From an uncultured Candidatus Saccharibacteria bacterium (GTDB lineage Bacteria > Patescibacteriota > Minisyncoccia > Phycocordibacterales > SBAW01), in contig CAZTNI010000001.1 in NCBI GenBank assembly GCA_964615415.1, positions 25,290-89,289 on the forward strand: a stretch of DNA of 64,000 nucleotides. Direction: 5' to 3'. How positions within the stretch are numbered: position 1 is the first letter of the stretch; each line of letters opens with the position of its first letter. Below, in pieces: positions 3,316-32,072 of the stretch. The notes beneath the pieces are model-generated. The model did not search any database. It was not told the DNA's origin and saw only the letters and a list, made by a program, of their open reading frames with translations. Position numbers and translations under genes: made by a program.

Positions 3316-5559
3316 ATGGTGTGCATGGCGCGCAAGAGTAGTAAACGAGAAAGTCGGTTTAATCCCCTTGCCTCTCTCCCTACCGACACAAAAAAATCCG
3401 TTATTGTTGTGCTCTTCATTATTGTTGGCATGTTCTTAACCCTCGCCGCGTTTGGATACGCTGGCGTTGTTGGTACTGATGCGTACCAGTTCTTTGTGTA
3501 TCTATTAGGGGTTGGTTACTTCCTCCTCCCTCTCCTCTTTTTCCTTCTTGCAGGTAACATGTTCCGAGCCGAGGATTCTGCCTCAGGCCTTTCCCCTTTC
3601 AAAATTATCGCGAGCGCTGTGTTTATTTTTGCCGGCTTGGGCTTTGTAACTATTGTGAGTGGAGACGGTGGCCTCGTAGGGTCTTCTATTGCTGACCCGT
3701 TGGTTGAATTGTTCGACATGTACGTCGCCATGATCGCTTTAGGAGGAGTATCTCTTATTTCACTCCTTATACTGCTTGAGGGGCGCATCTCACTAGAGCC
3801 GTTTGCATTTTTCAAACACCTCATCACCTTCCCTGCGCAACTATATAGAAAGCTCTTTAAGCGCTCTGACGCAGGAGAAGATACGGAACTACTTGTAAAC
3901 GGTGCGCCTATAGAAGACGAAGAGGAGGGGGCGCAAGACGAGGAGCCTCAAACGTACACCAAACAGGCTCCCGAACCTGCCAAGGCTCAAAAAGCTGCCG
4001 AGGCGCAACCAGCACAGACTGGCGGCGGACTCTTCTCTACTCTTGAAGGGTTGCTTGGAGAATACACACCCCCGCCACTTTCTTTGCTTGAGAGAGACAA
4101 GGGCCGCCCAGGCGTGGGAGACATAAAAGCAAACGCAAATATCATTAAGCGCACGCTCGCTAACTTCGGTATTGTTGTAGAGCTCGACGAGATTTCTATA
4201 GGACCGTCAGTTACCCGCTACGCGATTAAACCCGCAGAAGGAGTTCGCCTTTCAAAGATTGTTGCTCTGCAACAAAACTTAGCGCTTGCGCTTGCAGCAA
4301 AGGGCGGTATCCGTATCGAAGCTCCAATTCCAGGCAAATCGCTCGTCGGTATTGAAGTGCCAAACACCGCAAAAGTGACTGTAGGCCTTGGTACCTTGCT
4401 CGACTCGAAAGATTTTTCTGATTCACCGAAACCACTTCTTGTGGCGCTTGGGCGCGATATTACCGGCAACTCAATCTTTTCAAATATCGCGAAGATGCCG
4501 CACGCGCTTGTTGCAGGTGCAACAGGCTCAGGCAAGTCGGTAACGATCCACGCCATAATTAACTCGCTCCTGTTCCGCTGCGGTCCACAACAGCTCCGCT
4601 TCCTCATGATCGACCCAAAGCGTGTTGAATTGACGCTCTACAACGCAATCCCACACCAACTCACTCCTGTAATTACTGATCCTAAGAAAGCTATTGCTGC
4701 TTTGCGCTGGGCCGGCAAGGAAATGGATCGTCGCTACAATATCTTGCAAGAAAATCGCGTTCGCGACATTGGGTCATATCACGAAAACATTCTTGCACCC
4801 GCGCTTGAAAAACTCCGCAAGAAAGGCGCACCAGATGAAGGTGAAACTGTGCCGGAAGCAATGCCATACATTGTCATTATTATCGATGAGTTGGCGGATA
4901 TTATGCAGACCTTCCCTCGCGAACTTGAAGCAGCGATCGTGCGCCTTGCACAGATGAGCCGTGCGGTCGGTATACATCTTGTCCTTTCAACACAGCGTCC
5001 GTCTGTAAATGTTATTACCGGTCTTATTAAAGCCAACGTTCCAACACGCGTTGCGCTGCAAGTAGCTTCACAAATAGACTCCCGCACTATCCTTGACCAG
5101 GGCGGCGCAGAAAGCCTGCTCGGCGCGGGCGACATGCTCTACCTTTCTACCGACATGAATAAACCGACGCGCTTGCAAAGCGCATTCATTAGCGAAAACG
5201 AGGTTAAAAAAGTTGTCGACTTTATTACAGAAAACAACGAAGCGGAGTTGCCTATCGATATCGGCGCGACACAAAGCAGCTCAGGTGGTAGCAGTGGTGG
5301 CGGATTCGATAGTGAAGGTGGTGACGATGTTGATGATGATATGTATGAAGCAGCGCGTGCTGCGGTGATTGAAGCTGGCAAAGCTTCTACGTCGTATATC
5401 CAGCGCAAACTCCGTGTAGGATACGCTCGCGCTGCGCGCCTTATGGATATTCTTGAGGAACGAGGTGTAATTGGTCCTGCAGACGGCGCAAAACCACGTG
5501 AGGTGCTCGACAAAGGCGGCACGGCTCCTGCCGAAGCAGGCCAATCCGGCGAACTATGA
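3316..5559 (+). CDS. ftsK: DNA translocase FtsK/SpoIIIE
   Basis: N-terminal TM helices. Walker A GATGSGKSV and Walker B IVIIIDELAD. C-terminal winged-helix gamma domain SYIQRKLRVGYARAARLMDILEERGVIGP. Confidence 0.9.
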   Translation: MVCMARKSSKRESRFNPLASLPTDTKKSVIVVLFIIVGMFLTLAAFGYAGVVGTDAYQFFVYLLGVGYFLLPLLFFLLAGNMFRAEDSASGLSPFKIIASAVFIFAGLGFVTIVSGDGGLVGSSIADPLVELFDMYVAMIALGGVSLISLLILLEGRISLEPFAFFKHLITFPAQLYRKLFKRSDAGEDTELLVNGAPIEDEEEGAQDEEPQTYTKQAPEPAKAQKAAEAQPAQTGGGLFSTLEGLLGEYTPPPLSLLERDKGRPGVGDIKANANIIKRTLANFGIVVELDEISIGPSVTRYAIKPAEGVRLSKIVALQQNLALALAAKGGIRIEAPIPGKSLVGIEVPNTAKVTVGLGTLLDSKDFSDSPKPLLVALGRDITGNSIFSNIAKMPHALVAGATGSGKSVTIHAIINSLLFRCGPQQLRFLMIDPKRVELTLYNAIPHQLTPVITDPKKAIAALRWAGKEMDRRYNILQENRVRDIGSYHENILAPALEKLRKKGAPDEGETVPEAMPYIVIIIDELADIMQTFPRELEAAIVRLAQMSRAVGIHLVLSTQRPSVNVITGLIKANVPTRVALQVASQIDSRTILDQGGAESLLGAGDMLYLSTDMNKPTRLQSAFISENEVKKVVDFITENNEAELPIDIGATQSSSGGSSGGGFDSEGGDDVDDDMYEAARAAVIEAGKASTSYIQRKLRVGYARAARLMDILEERGVIGPADGAKPREVLDKGGTAPAEAGQSGEL

Positions 5560-7910: not shown

Positions 7911-8001
7911 AGGCTACTCCTTACAACTCTTGTGGATGGAAGAAGTTTCAAGTACACTGCCAGTATTGCCCGCCAGAACCGGCGGATTTTAATTTAAAAA
8001 T

Positions 8002-8571
8002 ATGTTGGAATATAACGAAATTCTCCCTAAAAAGGTTATTTTACTCGACGGCGAACCGTACGAAGTGCTTGACGCACACGTCTTCCGCAAGCAGCAGCGC
8101 AAGCCGGTTAACCAGACCAAGCTTCGCCACCTTATTACCGGCAAGGTAACTGAACAGGCGTTCCATGTATCTGAAAAGGTTGAAGAGGCTGAACTCTCGA
8201 GCAAGGAGGTAAAGTACCTCTTTACCAACCGCGGCGAGTTCTGGTTCTGCGACCCAAGCAATCCTGCAGATCGCTTTAAGCTCGACGCTGCAGTAATCGG
8301 TTCACAGTCTGCGTTCATGAAAGTAAACTCAACAGCCGAGGCGATTATCTTTGATGAAAAAATTATCGGCTTACGTATGCCTATTAAGGTTGATCTTGTT
8401 GTAAAAGAAGCTCCTCCTGCGGTACGCGGCAACACCGCACAAGGCGGCACCAAGCAGATTGTGCTTGAAACAGGCGCCACAGTGAACGCTCCCCTCTTCG
8501 TAAACGAAGGAGATATTGTACGCATCAACACACAAGAAGGAGTCTACGTTGAGCGCGTCGACAAGAAGTAA
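8002..8571 (+). CDS. efp: elongation factor P
   Basis: 189 aa. KVILLDGEPYEVLDAHVFRKQQRKPVNQTKLRHLITGKV is a typical EF-P N-terminal KOW domain. Confidence 0.9.
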   Translation: MLEYNEILPKKVILLDGEPYEVLDAHVFRKQQRKPVNQTKLRHLITGKVTEQAFHVSEKVEEAELSSKEVKYLFTNRGEFWFCDPSNPADRFKLDAAVIGSQSAFMKVNSTAEAIIFDEKIIGLRMPIKVDLVVKEAPPAVRGNTAQGGTKQIVLETGATVNAPLFVNEGDIVRINTQEGVYVERVDKK

Positions 8572-8579
8572 CAAGGGCA

Positions 8580-8649
8580 CAAACTAAAAATACCCCTGTG
8601 CTCCGGAGAGATATACCTCACTCCTGCACACAGGGGTATTTTTAGTTTG
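8580..8649. terminator. bidirectional terminator-like hairpin (21-bp perfect stem) with a conserved 28-nt loop; copy 1 of a repeated structured element
   Basis: caaactaaaaatacccctgtg [ctccggagagatatacctcactcctgca] cacaggggtatttttagtttg. Lies between convergent efp and rpsR. The loop is 24/28 identical to the loop at 30830-30857. Confidence 0.6.
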
Positions 8650-8660
8650 CGAGTACGCTA

Positions 8661-8852
8661 CTAGCGAACGATAAACGGCATGAGCGCCATGAAGCGTGCG
8701 CGTTTAATCGCCTGAGAAAGTTCACGCTGTGCTGCCGCAGTAAGACCAGTGCGGCGACGTGGCATGATTTTGCCATGTGGATTAACGAACTTCTTCAAAG
8801 TCTCGATGTCTTTGTAATCAATATGTTGGATTTGTGTGTATTCTTTTTGCAT
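8661..8852 (-). CDS. rpsR: 30S ribosomal protein S18
   Basis: 63 aa. [29 protein letters not shown]. Confidence 0.9.
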
Positions 8853-16511: not shown

Positions 16512-18455
16512 TTATTTTGGCGCAACAATGTCCACTCCACCAGGACCACTGTCTCCTACTAGGCGTGTTGTCGACGGATTTGCCGTAGCGCGTACCGGCA
16601 CCTGCACAAAACGATCTTGGCCGGTTAACACTACTTCGCTTGTTAAGTCTGGCGACTTACCCACCTGGCTCGTACTTGGCACAATCGTTACCTGGAAGGC
16701 AGCCTGTAGTGCTGCTTGGGTGTACCCTACACCCGCTTTAATGTCACCAATGTTCCATCGCACAGTGCGACTTGCTGCGTCGTAGGTTATGCCGCTTCCT
16801 GAAGGACTCGACATAAATTGTACATAAGACGGCAGCGTTGCAGAGACAGACGCATTCGCAACGGTGTTTGCAGAGTTTTTCACTCCCCAGACAATCGTGT
16901 ACGAAGTCGCTTGTTCGGCGCGCGGCGGCATTGGTCCGATATTTTGGAAACCGCCCGTGTAGTGCAGCGTTTTTACATCAAGCGTTGCTTGGGACGCAAG
17001 CTGCACTCGCGCGGTCGCCGCAGATGCAACCGATTCCGGCGCCCCGCCACCTCCCTGACGCACACCGCGCACCTGTAAATTAAGTTCGATAGTTGGGTTT
17101 GTAATAAGCACGCCTGCTTCTCCGGGCTTCAGTGTACTAAATGAGAAGTGGAAGGTTCCTGTTTCGCCTGGCTGTACCGTCGCAAGAGAATTGTTTTGAT
17201 CTTTAGACCAAATAATCGCAGTTTGTGCGGATTGGTAAAATCCATTTCCGGCACTAATAGCATTTTTGTTAAGAGCAGGACCAGCAAATGACAAAATTAA
17301 CTCCACGTTTGAGACCGGATCAGGGAGATTGTTCTTCCACGTCACCGTACCTTCGAGCTGCTCGCCCGCAGCAACAGAGATAGTTTTTCCTGTTTGCCCC
17401 TCGACTGCGATCGTTGCAGAAATAAACGGCTGCCGCACGGTAACAGTCTGCGGCATGATAAGGAACGGGACTTTAATTTTTGTATCGGTCTGGTCGCTGT
17501 TTGACCCCGCAAAGAAGCGGAAGACGCGTTCATCACCATCTTGTCCTTCAAGGGCACCGGTAATTTTAATAGTGCGCGATGCGCCCGGCTGTAGTGTCCC
17601 TAGTCGCCAAAACGTACCCCCTGCATCTGCCTGTGGCTGTGTTGTTCCGACCGTAAATCCAAATGGATACTGTCCTTGCAGCACTAAATTCTCGACAGGC
17701 GTTGTTGCATTAGAACGCACGGTCACGTCCATAGAAATCTCACCCCCCGTTGTTGTGTCAGTTGGCGCAGATACAGTAATTGAAACGGGAGAGGAGCCTA
17801 TCGTGTACGTCGTTTCCGTTTGCTTTTGGAAAACTGCGTTTGAATTTTTAACACTATATTCAAGCGTTGCACGGATTGTTTGCGTTTCCCCTTCTTGTCC
17901 AAACACAAGAGCAGAAGCTGTTTGTTTTATTTGTTCACCTGCAGGAATCGTGCCAATAGTGTGACGGTCGTACGTCAGCTCCTGCGCTGGGTTAGCAGCA
18001 CTGCGCGTGCCATCCGGGTACGTCAAAATAAGATCCGCAAGCTCGAGGTCAGTTTGGTTGCGGTTGGTAATAATAAACTGGAATGTTGCTTCCTTTCCTC
18101 CATCAATCAAAGACGGTGCCACTATTTCAATATCGATGTTCTGTGGAGAGATAGTATTCACTCCTCCTAAAATCATATAAGCGGCGGCGGCAAGTGACAG
18201 GAAGAAGAACGCGGCCGAACCGAGCAAAAATTTAGTAGCCATAGACATACGAGATTTGGTTTGTAGTGGTTGTGACGGCTGAGGTACACCACTTGTTACA
18301 CCTTCCGGCGTTGCAGCAGGTTCCCAAGCACGAGGAGCATCTGCAGTGCTCGGACTAAGGCTCGAGCGGTCTTCTGCAGGCGGTTTAATATCACTTTGAC
18401 GAGCATAGAGCGCGCGTTTAAGCTTCTCTACCCCGCTTTTCTCTTCGGGAACCAT
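16512..18455 (-). CDS. hypothetical membrane-anchored protein with large Thr/Ser-rich extracytoplasmic domain
   Basis: 647 aa. ~70-aa cytoplasmic N-terminus, one TM (FLLGSAAFFFLSLAAAAYMIL), then an all-beta-like extracellular region. Confidence 0.55.
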   Translation of the reverse strand: MVPEEKSGVEKLKRALYARQSDIKPPAEDRSSLSPSTADAPRAWEPAATPEGVTSGVPQPSQPLQTKSRMSMATKFLLGSAAFFFLSLAAAAYMILGGVNTISPQNIDIEIVAPSLIDGGKEATFQFIITNRNQTDLELADLILTYPDGTRSAANPAQELTYDRHTIGTIPAGEQIKQTASALVFGQEGETQTIRATLEYSVKNSNAVFQKQTETTYTIGSSPVSITVSAPTDTTTGGEISMDVTVRSNATTPVENLVLQGQYPFGFTVGTTQPQADAGGTFWRLGTLQPGASRTIKITGALEGQDGDERVFRFFAGSNSDQTDTKIKVPFLIMPQTVTVRQPFISATIAVEGQTGKTISVAAGEQLEGTVTWKNNLPDPVSNVELILSFAGPALNKNAISAGNGFYQSAQTAIIWSKDQNNSLATVQPGETGTFHFSFSTLKPGEAGVLITNPTIELNLQVRGVRQGGGGAPESVASAATARVQLASQATLDVKTLHYTGGFQNIGPMPPRAEQATSYTIVWGVKNSANTVANASVSATLPSYVQFMSSPSGSGITYDAASRTVRWNIGDIKAGVGYTQAALQAAFQVTIVPSTSQVGKSPDLTSEVVLTGQDRFVQVPVRATANPSTTRLVGDSGPGGVDIVAPK

Positions 18456-29420: not shown

Positions 29421-30806
29421 ATGCAATTTGAAGATCTGAAACATGTACGTCGCCCCCTCTCGGGCAATGGCAAAGTAGTAGTACTCGACACCGGCGCGCT
29501 CATAACGCCAGAAGCAAGCGCTATGCTCCAAGCGCTCCACTCGCGCTCGATCGGCGGAGTCGACTCCCACCTCGTAAAGCTCGCACAAAAAGGTGCTAAA
29601 AACTTCATGGACACGTACTACGTGGGGTACGGCGATAAGTCTATTGGCGACTGTGGCACGACAACCATCTTCGTTGAAGGAGTGTCCATGCTCGTTGCGA
29701 AAGCGATCCAGGACTCCCAACTTTATAACGGGCAGGAATCTTCGACACGCTACATCGACTTTACCTTCCAACCATTTGCAAACCCTGCAGGCACGCAAAA
29801 AGGCGCAGAAACATTAGAGTCACTCCGCACGTTTTACCTCCACGGTTTAGACGTAATGAAAGCCGAGCTCGCCAAGCGCCACCCGAAAGGCGCCGAGGAA
29901 GACGAGAAGGTGTGGCAAAAAGCAATTAACGCCCGCGCATTCGACATCATGCGCTCGTTCCTCCCTGCAGGTGCCGCAACAAACCTCGCATGGCATACCG
30001 AGCTGCGTCATGCTGCAGACCAGCTTGCACGTCTACGTAACCACCCACTTCCGGAAGTACGTGAAGTCGCTGCAGCGGTTACCGAAGCGCTTGACGAAGC
30101 GTACCCGAGTTCGTTTAAACAAAAACGCTACCCTGCTACCGAGGAATACACCCACAAGTGGATGGAAAGCTCGTACTACTACAACGACAATCCAGGAAGC
30201 GGCGCGAGCCTTGCTTCGACCGTACTCCACGGCATTACGCTCGAGAGAAACGCTATAGACTACAACTTACTGCGTTCGTATAAAACAATTCTTGAAACAC
30301 GCCCCGTCAAAACCGAACCGCCGAAGTTTCTTGCAGAAGCTGGCACTATGCGCTTCTCCTTCTTGCTCGACTTCGGATCATTCCGCGACTTGCAGCGCCA
30401 CCGCTCGCTCGTGCAGCGCATGCCGCTTTTAACCGACAAGCGCGGGTTCCACTTGTGGTACCTCGAGCAGATGCCGGAAACACTCAAGCAGGAAGCTATT
30501 GGCTTCCTTGCTCGTTACAGCAATGCAGTTGATGCACTTAAGCTTTCGTCGGTACTCACGCAGTACTACATTCCGATGGGCTACCAGGTGAGCTTGCGTA
30601 TGACGGGAGACCTCCCTGCACTTATGTGGGTTGTGGAACTTCGCTCAGGTATTTCCGTCCACCCAACGCTCCGCATCGCTGCACAGCACATTGGACAGCT
30701 CATGCTTGAGCAGCTCGGCGGCGCAGGCTTAAAACTCTACATAGACGAAAGCGAAGACCGCTTTAACTACAAGCGCGGCACGCAAGACATAGTCGAGAAA
30801 CAGTAG
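29421..30806 (+). CDS. thyX: flavin-dependent thymidylate synthase ThyX-like, apparent fused tandem duplication
   Basis: C-terminal half has FRDLQRHRSLVQRMP (ThyX RHR motif). N-terminal half has a degenerate copy (TTIFVEGVSMLVAKAIQDSQLYNGQESSTRY vs consensus fTF.ie.sRav.rQlvRHR..s.sqqSqRY). 461 aa, about twice a normal ThyX. Confidence 0.6.
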   Translation: MQFEDLKHVRRPLSGNGKVVVLDTGALITPEASAMLQALHSRSIGGVDSHLVKLAQKGAKNFMDTYYVGYGDKSIGDCGTTTIFVEGVSMLVAKAIQDSQLYNGQESSTRYIDFTFQPFANPAGTQKGAETLESLRTFYLHGLDVMKAELAKRHPKGAEEDEKVWQKAINARAFDIMRSFLPAGAATNLAWHTELRHAADQLARLRNHPLPEVREVAAAVTEALDEAYPSSFKQKRYPATEEYTHKWMESSYYYNDNPGSGASLASTVLHGITLERNAIDYNLLRSYKTILETRPVKTEPPKFLAEAGTMRFSFLLDFGSFRDLQRHRSLVQRMPLLTDKRGFHLWYLEQMPETLKQEAIGFLARYSNAVDALKLSSVLTQYYIPMGYQVSLRMTGDLPALMWVVELRSGISVHPTLRIAAQHIGQLMLEQLGGAGLKLYIDESEDRFNYKRGTQDIVEKQ

Positions 30807-30809
30807 AAA

Positions 30810-30877
30810 GTAAAAAATAAAAGCCCGTGCTTTGGAGAGATATACCTCACTCCGACACACGGGCTTTTATTTTTTAC
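30810..30877. terminator. bidirectional terminator-like hairpin (20-bp stem) with conserved 28-nt loop; copy 2 of the repeated element
   Basis: gtaaaaaataaaagcccgtg [ctttggagagatatacctcactccgaca] cacgggcttttattttttac. Lies between convergent thyX and rplK. Confidence 0.6.
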
Positions 30878-30887
30878 TTCAGTTTAA

Positions 30888-31310
30888 TTATTTTACATCA
30901 ACACCCATTGAGCGGGCAGAACCAGCAACAACTTTCATTGCTTGCTCCATCGTGTGCGCATTGAGGTCTGGCATTTTGCGCTCTGCGATAGCCTGTACCT
31001 GCGCCTTTGTAAGCGTACCGATCTTTGCAGTATTTGGCTTACCACTTCCCTTCTCTTTACCGAGGGCCTTAAGGATAAGACCAGAAACCGGAGGAGTCTT
31101 GAGGATAAATGAGTAGGTGCGATCCTCGTATACAGAAATCTCTGCAGGGATCATGTCGCCACGCATGTCTTTAGATGCCTCGTTGAATTTCTTGATGAAT
31201 TCACCGATGTTGATGCCGGCAGGACCGAGCACCTGACCCATGGCAGGGGTCATAGCCGCAGCGCCACCCGCCGCAACAATCTTGATTTTCTTGACTATCT
31301 TCTTTGCCAT
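30888..31310 (-). CDS. rplK: 50S ribosomal protein L11
   Basis: KIVKKIKIVAAGGAAAMTPAMGQVLGPAGINIGEF.... Confidence 0.95.
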   Translation of the reverse strand: MAKKIVKKIKIVAAGGAAAMTPAMGQVLGPAGINIGEFIKKFNEASKDMRGDMIPAEISVYEDRTYSFILKTPPVSGLILKALGKEKGSGKPNTAKIGTLTKAQVQAIAERKMPDLNAHTMEQAMKVVAGSARSMGVDVK

Positions 31311-31328
31311 ATGCCGAGTGATATTACC

Positions 31329-31880
31329 TTATATACGTTTGATTTGCAAAAAGTCCAATTCTACCGGGGTTTCGCGGCCAAACATAGCCACAAGGACCTT
31401 TACCTTGCCACGACTCTCGTCCACTTCACCCACCTTACCATCGAGGTCTTTAAACGGACCATCGACAATAACAACCGAGTCTCCAACCGTAAGGTCAATA
31501 GCATGTTTTACTGAACCCTCTGCAGCCTGCATGCGGCCCAAGAGCTCATCCACCTCCTTTTGCTGGAGCGGCACTGGGTTTACACCAGAACCAACGAAAC
31601 CGGTTACGCGCGGCGTGTTGCGTACGACGAACCACGACTGGTCGTCTACGATCATCTCCACAAGCACGTAGCCTGGGTAGATCTTTTCATCTTCCTCGAC
31701 GCGGCGACCGCCTTTAATTTTGACCGTGTGTTCTGTTGGTACAACCACGTTGAAAATCTTCTCTTGAAGACCGAGAGATTCGATGCGCTGCTTCAGGTTG
31801 CGAGCAACTGCGTTTTCATACCCTGCATAGGTGTGAATCGCATACCATGCCCGACCGAGACTAGAGTCTTGTTTTGCCAT
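31329..31880 (-). CDS. nusG: transcription termination/antitermination factor NusG
   Basis: WYAIHTYAGYENAV (NGN domain), C-terminal KOW GDSVVIVDGPFKDLDGKVGEVD. Confidence 0.9.
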   Translation of the reverse strand: MAKQDSSLGRAWYAIHTYAGYENAVARNLKQRIESLGLQEKIFNVVVPTEHTVKIKGGRRVEEDEKIYPGYVLVEMIVDDQSWFVVRNTPRVTGFVGSGVNPVPLQQKEVDELLGRMQAAEGSVKHAIDLTVGDSVVIVDGPFKDLDGKVGEVDESRGKVKVLVAMFGRETPVELDFLQIKRI

Positions 31881-31900
31881 AGCTACAATGAAAAAAGTGA

Positions 31901-32072
31901 ACTAAATAATGCGCTTAAGGATTGCTGAGAAGAGGTAGTCCAAAAGACCGAGGTATACCGCTACTGCGAGCGACAAACCGATAACAACAAGACTGTATGC
32001 GATTACTTGTGCACGAGTAGGCCACGATACATGCTTGAGCTCGCCCCGAACGTCTTTAATGTAGTTAAACAT
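31901..32072 (-). CDS. secE: preprotein translocase subunit SecE
   Basis: Hand-translated 56 aa: MFNYIKDVRGELKHVSWPTRAQVIAYSLVVIGLSLAVAVYLGLLDYLFSAILKRII. Below the ORF-track size cutoff. Canonical secE-nusG-rplK order. Confidence 0.7.

Follow-up and report, generated by a model that had tools for sequence, protein, structure and literature searches.

What is the long hairpin that separates the convergent thyX-like and rplK genes, and why does its loop recur at a second gene junction of the same window (by which we mean the whole 64-kb stretch of DNA that was analysed)? A preliminary description had drawn a stem with the arms GTAAAAAATAAAAGCCCGTG at 30810-30829 and CACGGGCTTTTATTTTTTAC at 30858-30877 around the loop CTTTGGAGAGATATACCTCACTCCGACA at 30830-30857, and had taken the whole for the second copy of a repeated intergenic element, the first being at 8580-8649. 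The stem and loop are as drawn; perfect pairing runs two bases further on each side, giving a 22-bp inverted repeat (30808-30829 / 30858-30879). On the + strand this palindrome is composed of three parts: the 5' arm AAGTAAAAAATAAAAGCCCGTG (30808-30829), with an A-tract and the GC-rich stem base GCCCGT; a 28-nt loop module (30830-30857) reading CTTT GGAGAGATATACCTCACTCC GACA, which is the CTTT...GACA variant of what we term family A; and the 3' arm CACGGGCTTTTATTTTTTACTT (30858-30879), with the stem base ACGGGC and a T-tract. The central 20 nt of the loop, GGAGAGATATACCTCACTCC (30834-30853), form an invariant core that exactly repeats 8605-8624.

A recurrent loop at two convergent gene junctions

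The palindrome begins 1 nt after the TAG stop codon (30804-30806) of the upstream gene, a member of the Thy1/ThyX family (29421-30806, + strand; 461 aa; PF02511, 60 bits), and ends 8 nt before the stop codon of rplK, which codes for ribosomal protein L11 (30888-31310, - strand; PF00298, PF03946) and is the final gene of secE-nusG-rplK. The placement between convergent genes that had been described is hence correct. The first copy (8580-8649, + strand), with the arms CAAACTAAAAATACCCCTGTG and CACAGGGGTATTTTTAGTTTG around the loop CTCCGGAGAGATATACCTCACTCCTGCA (8601-8628), has as its neighbours efp (8002-8571, + strand) and rpsR (8661-8852, - strand). Together these hairpins are the two longest inverted repeats of the window.

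In the window there are exactly two occurrences of the core, at 8605 and 30834, on the + strand both times; in 100 dinucleotide shuffles it was matched not once, even with 3 mismatches permitted. When every position of the window was scored with a covariance model built from 10 copies, these same two copies were recovered with 82 and 79 bits, and the remaining matches, at 21 bits or less, were ordinary short terminators. A third copy was found neither by patterns with up to 5 mismatches nor by the unfiltered covariance model. The hairpin is thus indeed a second copy of the one at 8580-8649, with a conserved loop on differing stems. An independent Logan assembly from a different read set (L010) has the identical sequence at the thyX/rplK junction, which shows that the hairpin is not an assembly artefact.

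Several simpler identities were tried and set aside. A known RNA family was rejected: with Rfam, tRNAs alone pass the gathering threshold across the whole window, and at E <= 10 the best matches at the locus are ohsC (29.3 vs 50 bits) and Thr_leader (25.4 vs 55 bits), both of them generic terminator or hairpin matches. A small TTG-started ORF of 94 aa (30832-31116) is owed to the CTTT variant alone and overlaps rplK in antisense. The other long-loop inverted repeats of the window (I3, I7, I11, I14, I24) are unrelated. A match to 16 of the 20 core bases at 18145-18164 (GGAGAGATAGTATTCACTCC) lies, without arms, inside a long ORF (16512-18455, - strand) and is probably a chance occurrence.

Predicted terminator arms with a substituted apex

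In several respects the thyX/rplK hairpin resembles an intrinsic terminator serving both strands. Its GC-rich stem GCCCGTG/CACGGGC is flanked by AAAAAATAAAA and TTTTATTTTTT, which provide a U-tract on either transcript; it lies directly 3' of the convergent stop codons; and the folds predicted for both strands are stable (-40.3 kcal/mol, z = -10.0 for the + strand; -43.1 kcal/mol, z = -8.7 for the - strand). The loop, however, measures 28 nt rather than the ~3-8 nt expected of a terminator. Intrinsic terminators do not usually have loops of this length, and a simple consensus terminator scan does not call the hairpin.

The orthologous junctions of relatives locate the difference. In L033-L036, whose ThyX is 74% identical, the thyX/rplK junction reads aaaaacaacGCCCGTCGCG-aat-CGCGACGGGCggtttttatttcttac, as against taaaaaataaaaGCCCGTG-[28 nt]-CACGGGCttttattttttac in the window. 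The stem base GCCCGT/ACGGGC aligns between the window and these relatives, as do the A- and T-tracts and the flank leading into rplK, and the apex alone differs: L033 keeps TAAAAAA-AA-GCCCGT, its orthologous terminator has a 3-nt loop in the apex CGCG-aat-CGCG, and the 3' arm of the window is orthologous to the tail of that terminator, TTTTTATTTCTTAC. Ordinary short-loop terminators also stand 3' of thyX in L031 (87%) and L032 (76%). Neither the orthologous junction of L033-L036 nor the thyX terminator of L031 or L032 contains the 28-nt module. As the short-loop terminator of the relatives has the same base and flanks, the arms are ancestral and the 28-mer is a lineage-specific insertion at their tip. 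Plain bidirectional terminators of the same design stand at other gene ends of the window, with a GC stem and a loop of 0-5 nt between an A-tract and a T-tract.

The efp/rpsR copy repeats this pattern of filled and empty sites, its relatives having ordinary terminators 3' of efp: CCCCCGTGCGCC-ttg-GGCGCACGGGGG in L015 and AAAACCCCGCC-acc-GGCGGGGTTTT in L011. In L012 (3955-3957), and also in L013 and L014, the convergent efp and rpsR coding regions are 1 base apart, leaving no space for a terminator hairpin.

On these comparisons the stems are ancestral (predicted) terminators, and what repeats is the tip of ~28 nt, which comes to 32 nt when the invariant TG...CA around it is included. Of the element as originally described, the apex is what repeats, and the stem drops out of the unit at this locus. 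We consider it probable that the hairpin is a predicted shared bidirectional Rho-independent terminator of thyX and rplK that bears a selfish repeat at its tip. The original short apex would have been swapped for the family A module, and transcripts of both genes would be expected to terminate here. At this junction the module would be a passenger that leaves the predicted terminator function intact, since its inner mini-hairpin (see below) would merely lengthen the stem. Hence, the locus is better annotated as a thyX/rplK terminator carrying a repeat than as a new regulatory RNA.

Dispersal of the module and conservation of its core

Genome and metagenome collections were scanned once each for exact matches to the 20-mer, so that identity of the core among the external copies is partly built in. 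Two genome and seven metagenome loci were found, all on Patescibacteria-type or soil contigs, clade affiliation being taken from the names of the best homologues (Patescibacteria, Paceibacterota, Parcubacteria). At 8 of these 9 loci the 4+20+4 loop is set within long, perfect, locus-specific arms; at the ninth (L009) the same 28-mer is present and the contig ends 11 nt past it. An origin from phages or plasmids was rejected, as exact core matches numbered zero in viral contigs for family A and for the related family A' (see below), and blastn matches numbered zero in plasmids.

The loci are diverse. The module is found between rpmA and a convergent typA-like gene (L002); between the co-directional atpE and atpF, inside their operon (L003); downstream of a 16S rRNA gene (L007); in frame inside uvrC, as ...VRGKE[LAAESPLLWRDIPHSVTKDFPQLAK]TFGPFPHG (L004); at two separate positions of a GDE_C/MGH1-like glycosidase gene (L005, L008); and adjoining or within tgt, where it is probably intragenic (L009). 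A position at convergent gene junctions, which had been suggested for every copy, therefore holds for both copies in the window and fails for L003, L004, L005, L008 and probably L009. The copies in frame in uvrC, in the glycosidase gene and probably in tgt further show that an intergenic location, which had been part of the definition of the element, is not a defining property of the module.

The L008 insert corresponds to a clean 24-aa (72-nt) gap in the L005 homologue, which is the length of the entire palindrome. In uvrC the palindrome takes up the full length of the linker, and the insert there may have included all or part of the arms. Intragenic copies use three different reading frames, and a direct reading of the sequence shows that five of the six frames through the 28-mer are open. 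An insertion unit made up of the loop and one inverted flank copy would agree with the codon arithmetic of some intragenic copies but not of all. At the loop positions 4 and 1', on either side of the core (8604/8625 and 30833/30854 in the window, and their counterparts at other loci), there is perfect co-variation (n=11), with C...T in 7 cases and T...G in 4. Family A thus seems to fall into two sub-lineages, CTCC...TGCA and CTCT/CTTT...GNCA, of which the window would hold one each.

The main weakness of the selfish reading is the core itself, which is much better conserved than that of a neutral passenger should be. Between the two window copies the core has no differences, while 4 of the 8 flanking loop bases differ; and at the efp/rpsR junction of L006, where the loop is inverted relative to the window, it is 27/28 identical once flipped, despite 77.5% identity over 1309 nt of flanks. 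A spread in the very recent past would fit such conservation, and so would a sequence-specific function under selection. The latter is the chief rival, though in our estimate an unlikely one: the 28-nt module would be a selected cis-acting site, displayed by a stable hairpin to a conserved protein or RNA that recognises it, and would act at the RNA level in 3'-end stability, processing or regulated termination, or at the DNA level as a binding site on the duplex or extruded hairpin. Consistent with this, the core can be folded into a small inner hairpin, GGAG-A-GA-UAUACC-UC-A-CUCC, predicted at -11.3 kcal/mol (z = -2.8), whose 4+2 bp within the 28-nt loop leave an internal loop of 4x4 and an apical one of 6 nt; and several copies of the window type follow genes of translation, namely efp, rpsR, rplK, rpmA and 16S rRNA. 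It sits poorly, however, with the fact that the module can face either way with respect to its neighbouring genes, orthologous sites included, whereby the RNA of one and the same gene would carry the sense loop in one case and the antisense loop in another. Nor would a selected site be expected within unrelated coding regions, in three frames, or to be dispensable to close relatives, which do well with the same gene pair and no module. The Rfam searches offer it no match either.

Arms as probable products of a DNA-level process

The TG...CA around the loop is invariant in all 10 full copies; of the 14 arm pairs compared among them, 12 vary, TG...CA alone being invariant. Over these pairs (n=14, 10 copies) double changes number 35, one-sided changes and G-U pairs are absent, and 96% of the arm cells are paired. 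As every change is from one Watson-Crick pair to another with no G-U stage, a DNA-level process is indicated. The arms bear the mark of DNA palindromes that are made or corrected by copying, as opposed to RNA stems that drift via wobble. Taken with the intragenic copies and the two orientations, this pattern points to a module propagated and constrained at the level of DNA and argues against a strand-specific RNA signal.

Related loop families and their decay

Family A is accompanied by at least two further loop families with the same ends: A', reading CTCCGGAGAGATGAACGGGAGCCCTACTCC..., and B, reading CTCCGTTCCCCTTGGC...TCGCAGCGCTCAC.... One and the same site in tgt holds A, A' or B depending on the genome, and the MAG JAGWIT01 (L002 and L025) has all three at separate sites. 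The linker of uvrC is likewise occupied in different ways: by family A in the sense orientation in L004 and as a decayed A-like antisense copy in L028, and by family A' in sense in L027 and in antisense in L029.

To survey this linker, 120 UvrC homologues were aligned. About 45% of them have inserts at the one site, of 15-25 aa and sometimes of more than 60 aa, in which certain peptides recur: RDIPHS, RDEREPY, R[AS]PVHLSG, HLGSSQR and AAGRRGD. These are a few loop types translated in either orientation, and the DNA of four of the genomes with such inserts contains perfect or decaying palindromes with related loops. The arms are imperfect in L027; in L028 they are gone, part of the core is lost and the rest is mutated, yet it would still be translated. 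Copies thus decay after insertion, which is a further point against a selected cis-acting site, as is the fold predicted for the A' and B loops, in which the inner hairpin is not preserved.

The distribution of loop families also bears on whether movement is needed at all. The hairpins could in principle be ancient and vertically inherited, with loops that are sometimes flipped by recombination between the arms and with a loss of the module in the relatives that lack it. Inversion of loops between inverted arms is known from plastid hairpins, and the occupation of the uvrC and tgt sites in many lineages would be in keeping with long residence. Nevertheless, we regard this explanation as very improbable: the same 28-mer stands at many non-orthologous sites, and copying is therefore needed at some stage; the thyX/rplK apex of the relatives is complete and different (CGCG-aat-CGCG) and not a deletion scar; and three loop families stand at separate sites in a single MAG.

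Some further hairpins were seen in the genomes that carry these families. Relative to L025, L029 has more perfect in-frame hairpin inserts, two in uvrB (4787-4836, 5424-5500) and one in uvrA (7920-7972), which encode peptides of the SGQRGD/SGRRGD type. At an intergenic junction where L025 has an A' copy, L029 (321-418) has a hairpin with 23-bp arms and a 52-nt loop. In both L025 (16416-16511) and L027 (3812-3911) a perfect palindrome of 20-22 bp encloses a tRNA-Pro(CGG) gene, and in this palindrome leader and trailer pair for 13-15 bp past the 7-bp acceptor stem; the sequences of these extensions differ between the two, a layout of variable perfect arms and a conserved centre that matches that of the module hairpins.

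Comparison with known mobile and recombinogenic elements

The lifestyle of the module appears closest to that of three kinds of element: the Rickettsia palindromic elements (RPEs), SPRITE-like terminator repeats and organellar hairpin-forming elements. RPEs are dispersed palindromic repeats that occur between genes and in frame in unrelated housekeeping genes, to whose proteins they add surface peptides on translation, and the mechanism of their spread is unknown (PMC10969869). The module resembles them in being dispersed, palindromic and present both between genes and in frame, with the proviso that its in-gene copies are from related genomes and not from the window. It differs in that RPEs are ~100-150 bp long and conserved over their full length, whereas here the 28-32-nt apex alone is conserved and the arms are locus-specific, and ancestral where they belong to predicted terminators. 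The host phylum is also different, and it is by length and extent of conservation that the module is set apart from RPE-1 to RPE-10. SPRITE is a small repeated element in which a hairpin and T-tract resemble, and probably act as, an intrinsic terminator (PMC10969869); there the entire terminator-like unit is repeated, whereas here it is the tip alone, in a pre-existing terminator. In mitochondria, perfect inverted repeats that include translated sequence have been reported as the RHEs of sponges (PMC2800124) and the coding palindromes of Nematomorpha (PMC6649704). These too are perfect inverted repeats that invade or arise in genomes and are maintained as DNA palindromes, but they are organellar, no shared conserved loop module has been reported for them, and in Nematomorpha the arms encode conserved regions of proteins rather than inserted linkers.

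Two other classes are more distant. REP/BIME elements are short palindromic repeats at gene ends, often convergent ones, for which roles in termination and mRNA stability have been proposed (PMC3733652). They have a conserved stem, a GTAG/CGTC head and a high copy number, in contrast to the variable stem, conserved loop, lack of such a head and low copy number of the module; the RAYT gene of REP systems was not seen in the 64 kb of the source genome, which is partly annotated. MITEs are small, non-coding, hairpin-forming elements that are sometimes found in frame within genes (PMC10969869); the module has neither the conserved terminal inverted repeats nor the target-site duplications that define them.

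Another reading is that the module is non-autonomous and depends for its movement on a dedicated transposase whose gene lies at some other place in the genome. The candidates would be a single-stranded-DNA HUH/Y1 enzyme of the REP/RAYT kind or a relative of IS200/IS605, or else a DDE enzyme that acts on the TG...CA ends and prefers hairpin tips. Some IS3-family elements (IS1397, ISKpn1) do insert into the loops of REP palindromes, and the enzyme would find invariant TG...CA bounds in all 10 copies, a module that on direct reading is itself an imperfect 13-6-13 palindrome, and hairpin tips at non-orthologous sites. We nonetheless hold this improbable, more so than a selected site. The bases flanking the module are complementary and not direct repeats, so there is no target-site duplication; no transposase gene was seen adjoining any copy; the GTAG/CGTC head of REPs is missing and the arms are unconserved, unlike the terminal repeats of MITEs; and known transposase substrates are far longer than the 32 nt of the module.

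Three sites of another nature were considered and rejected. The dif sites of Xer recombination have an 11-6-11 structure with conserved inner arm bases and occur once per replicon; attC sites have conserved R and L boxes and a variable centre. The module can be written as 11-6-11, but symmetry extends to only 7 of the 11 arm bases, the 64 kb contain two copies, and the spacing is altered in the related A' loops; its conservation pattern is the reverse of that of attC. Mimicry of the anti-Shine-Dalgarno tail of 16S rRNA (ACCUCAC) lacked supporting context, and the 16S rRNA of L007 is without the CCUCC end. Its 3' end (~990-1040, - strand), the sole 16S 3' end recovered in the clade, reads ...GGTCGTGGATTGATTCAAAAG, without the usual CCTCC anti-Shine-Dalgarno tail.

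A possible mode of movement and its consequences

We return to the reading preferred above, a predicted terminator with a selfish tip. Under it, family A would be a dispersed module, restricted to a Patescibacteria group with Paceibacteria-like best matches, that sits at the tips of DNA palindromes with locus-specific arms, some of them terminators and some translated in frame; it would be selfish DNA of the copy-and-paste kind, passing at the level of DNA from one hairpin tip to another, whichever way round. Observed are the gain of the module relative to orthologous sites, its recurrence at non-orthologous ones, its in-frame copies within genes, its two orientations, the DNA-palindrome behaviour of the arms and the decayed copies; the manner of movement is inferred. 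The route we favour would be a break at the tip of a hairpin or cruciform, followed by templated repair from another module-bearing hairpin by way of short arm homology; the arms being palindromic, such repair could place the module either way round. Perfect arms would then be created or maintained by fold-back or template-switch synthesis. Synthesis of this kind is known to produce perfect hairpins and short inverted duplications beside breaks (PMC8794818, PMC5453318, PMC11724301). It would explain the perfect arms, the two-sided changes and the want of a G-U stage; it is, however, a mutational mechanism and not an element, and does not by itself explain a loop that is shared between loci. 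Against the passenger reading stand the small number of copies per genome, two in the 64 kb, and the fact that the loci compared yielded neither a transposase nor a target-site duplication nor a donor copy.

More speculatively, these modules might constitute an undescribed kind of mobile DNA in Patescibacteria: modules of 28-38 nt (A, A', B and others) that propagate specifically at hairpin tips, free of orientation and of target duplication, and coupled to the making or perfecting of locus-specific arms. We put this forward tentatively, as a possibility less likely than not. A literature search, itself incomplete, found no description of such elements in Patescibacteria. Were it true, the architecture would be the mirror image of that of MITEs, REPs and RPEs, with the loop conserved and the arms variable, and the modules would time and again supply new peptide segments to core proteins such as UvrA, UvrB, UvrC and Tgt.

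The observations have several implications. In uncultivated bacteria with small genomes, tiny modules at hairpin tips are found both in predicted terminators and as in-frame inserts, which would be translated, in enzymes of DNA repair and tRNA modification. They parallel the long-unexplained Rickettsia palindromic elements, with the additions of clean filled and empty orthologous sites and of a reversed conservation pattern. They may hence offer a tractable system for the questions of how such elements move and how new segments of proteins are seeded. The modules could also be used as strain or lineage markers in metagenomes.

Flanking genes and the surrounding window

Some features of the surroundings are recorded here. 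The two module copies of the window share their orientation, n=2 being too few for a test of strand bias. GC skew is negative in each 8-kb bin of the window (1-64000), which would probably place the window within one replichore. The cluster secE-nusG-rplK (30888-32072) ends at the hairpin, with no rplA after rplK. In L032 (2964-5579) three additional genes lie between thyX and rplK. The ThyX-family protein (29421-30806), at 461 aa, is about twice the usual length, and its Pfam Thy1 match covers residues 56-229 only; ThyX homologues of 450-475 aa are common in the clade.
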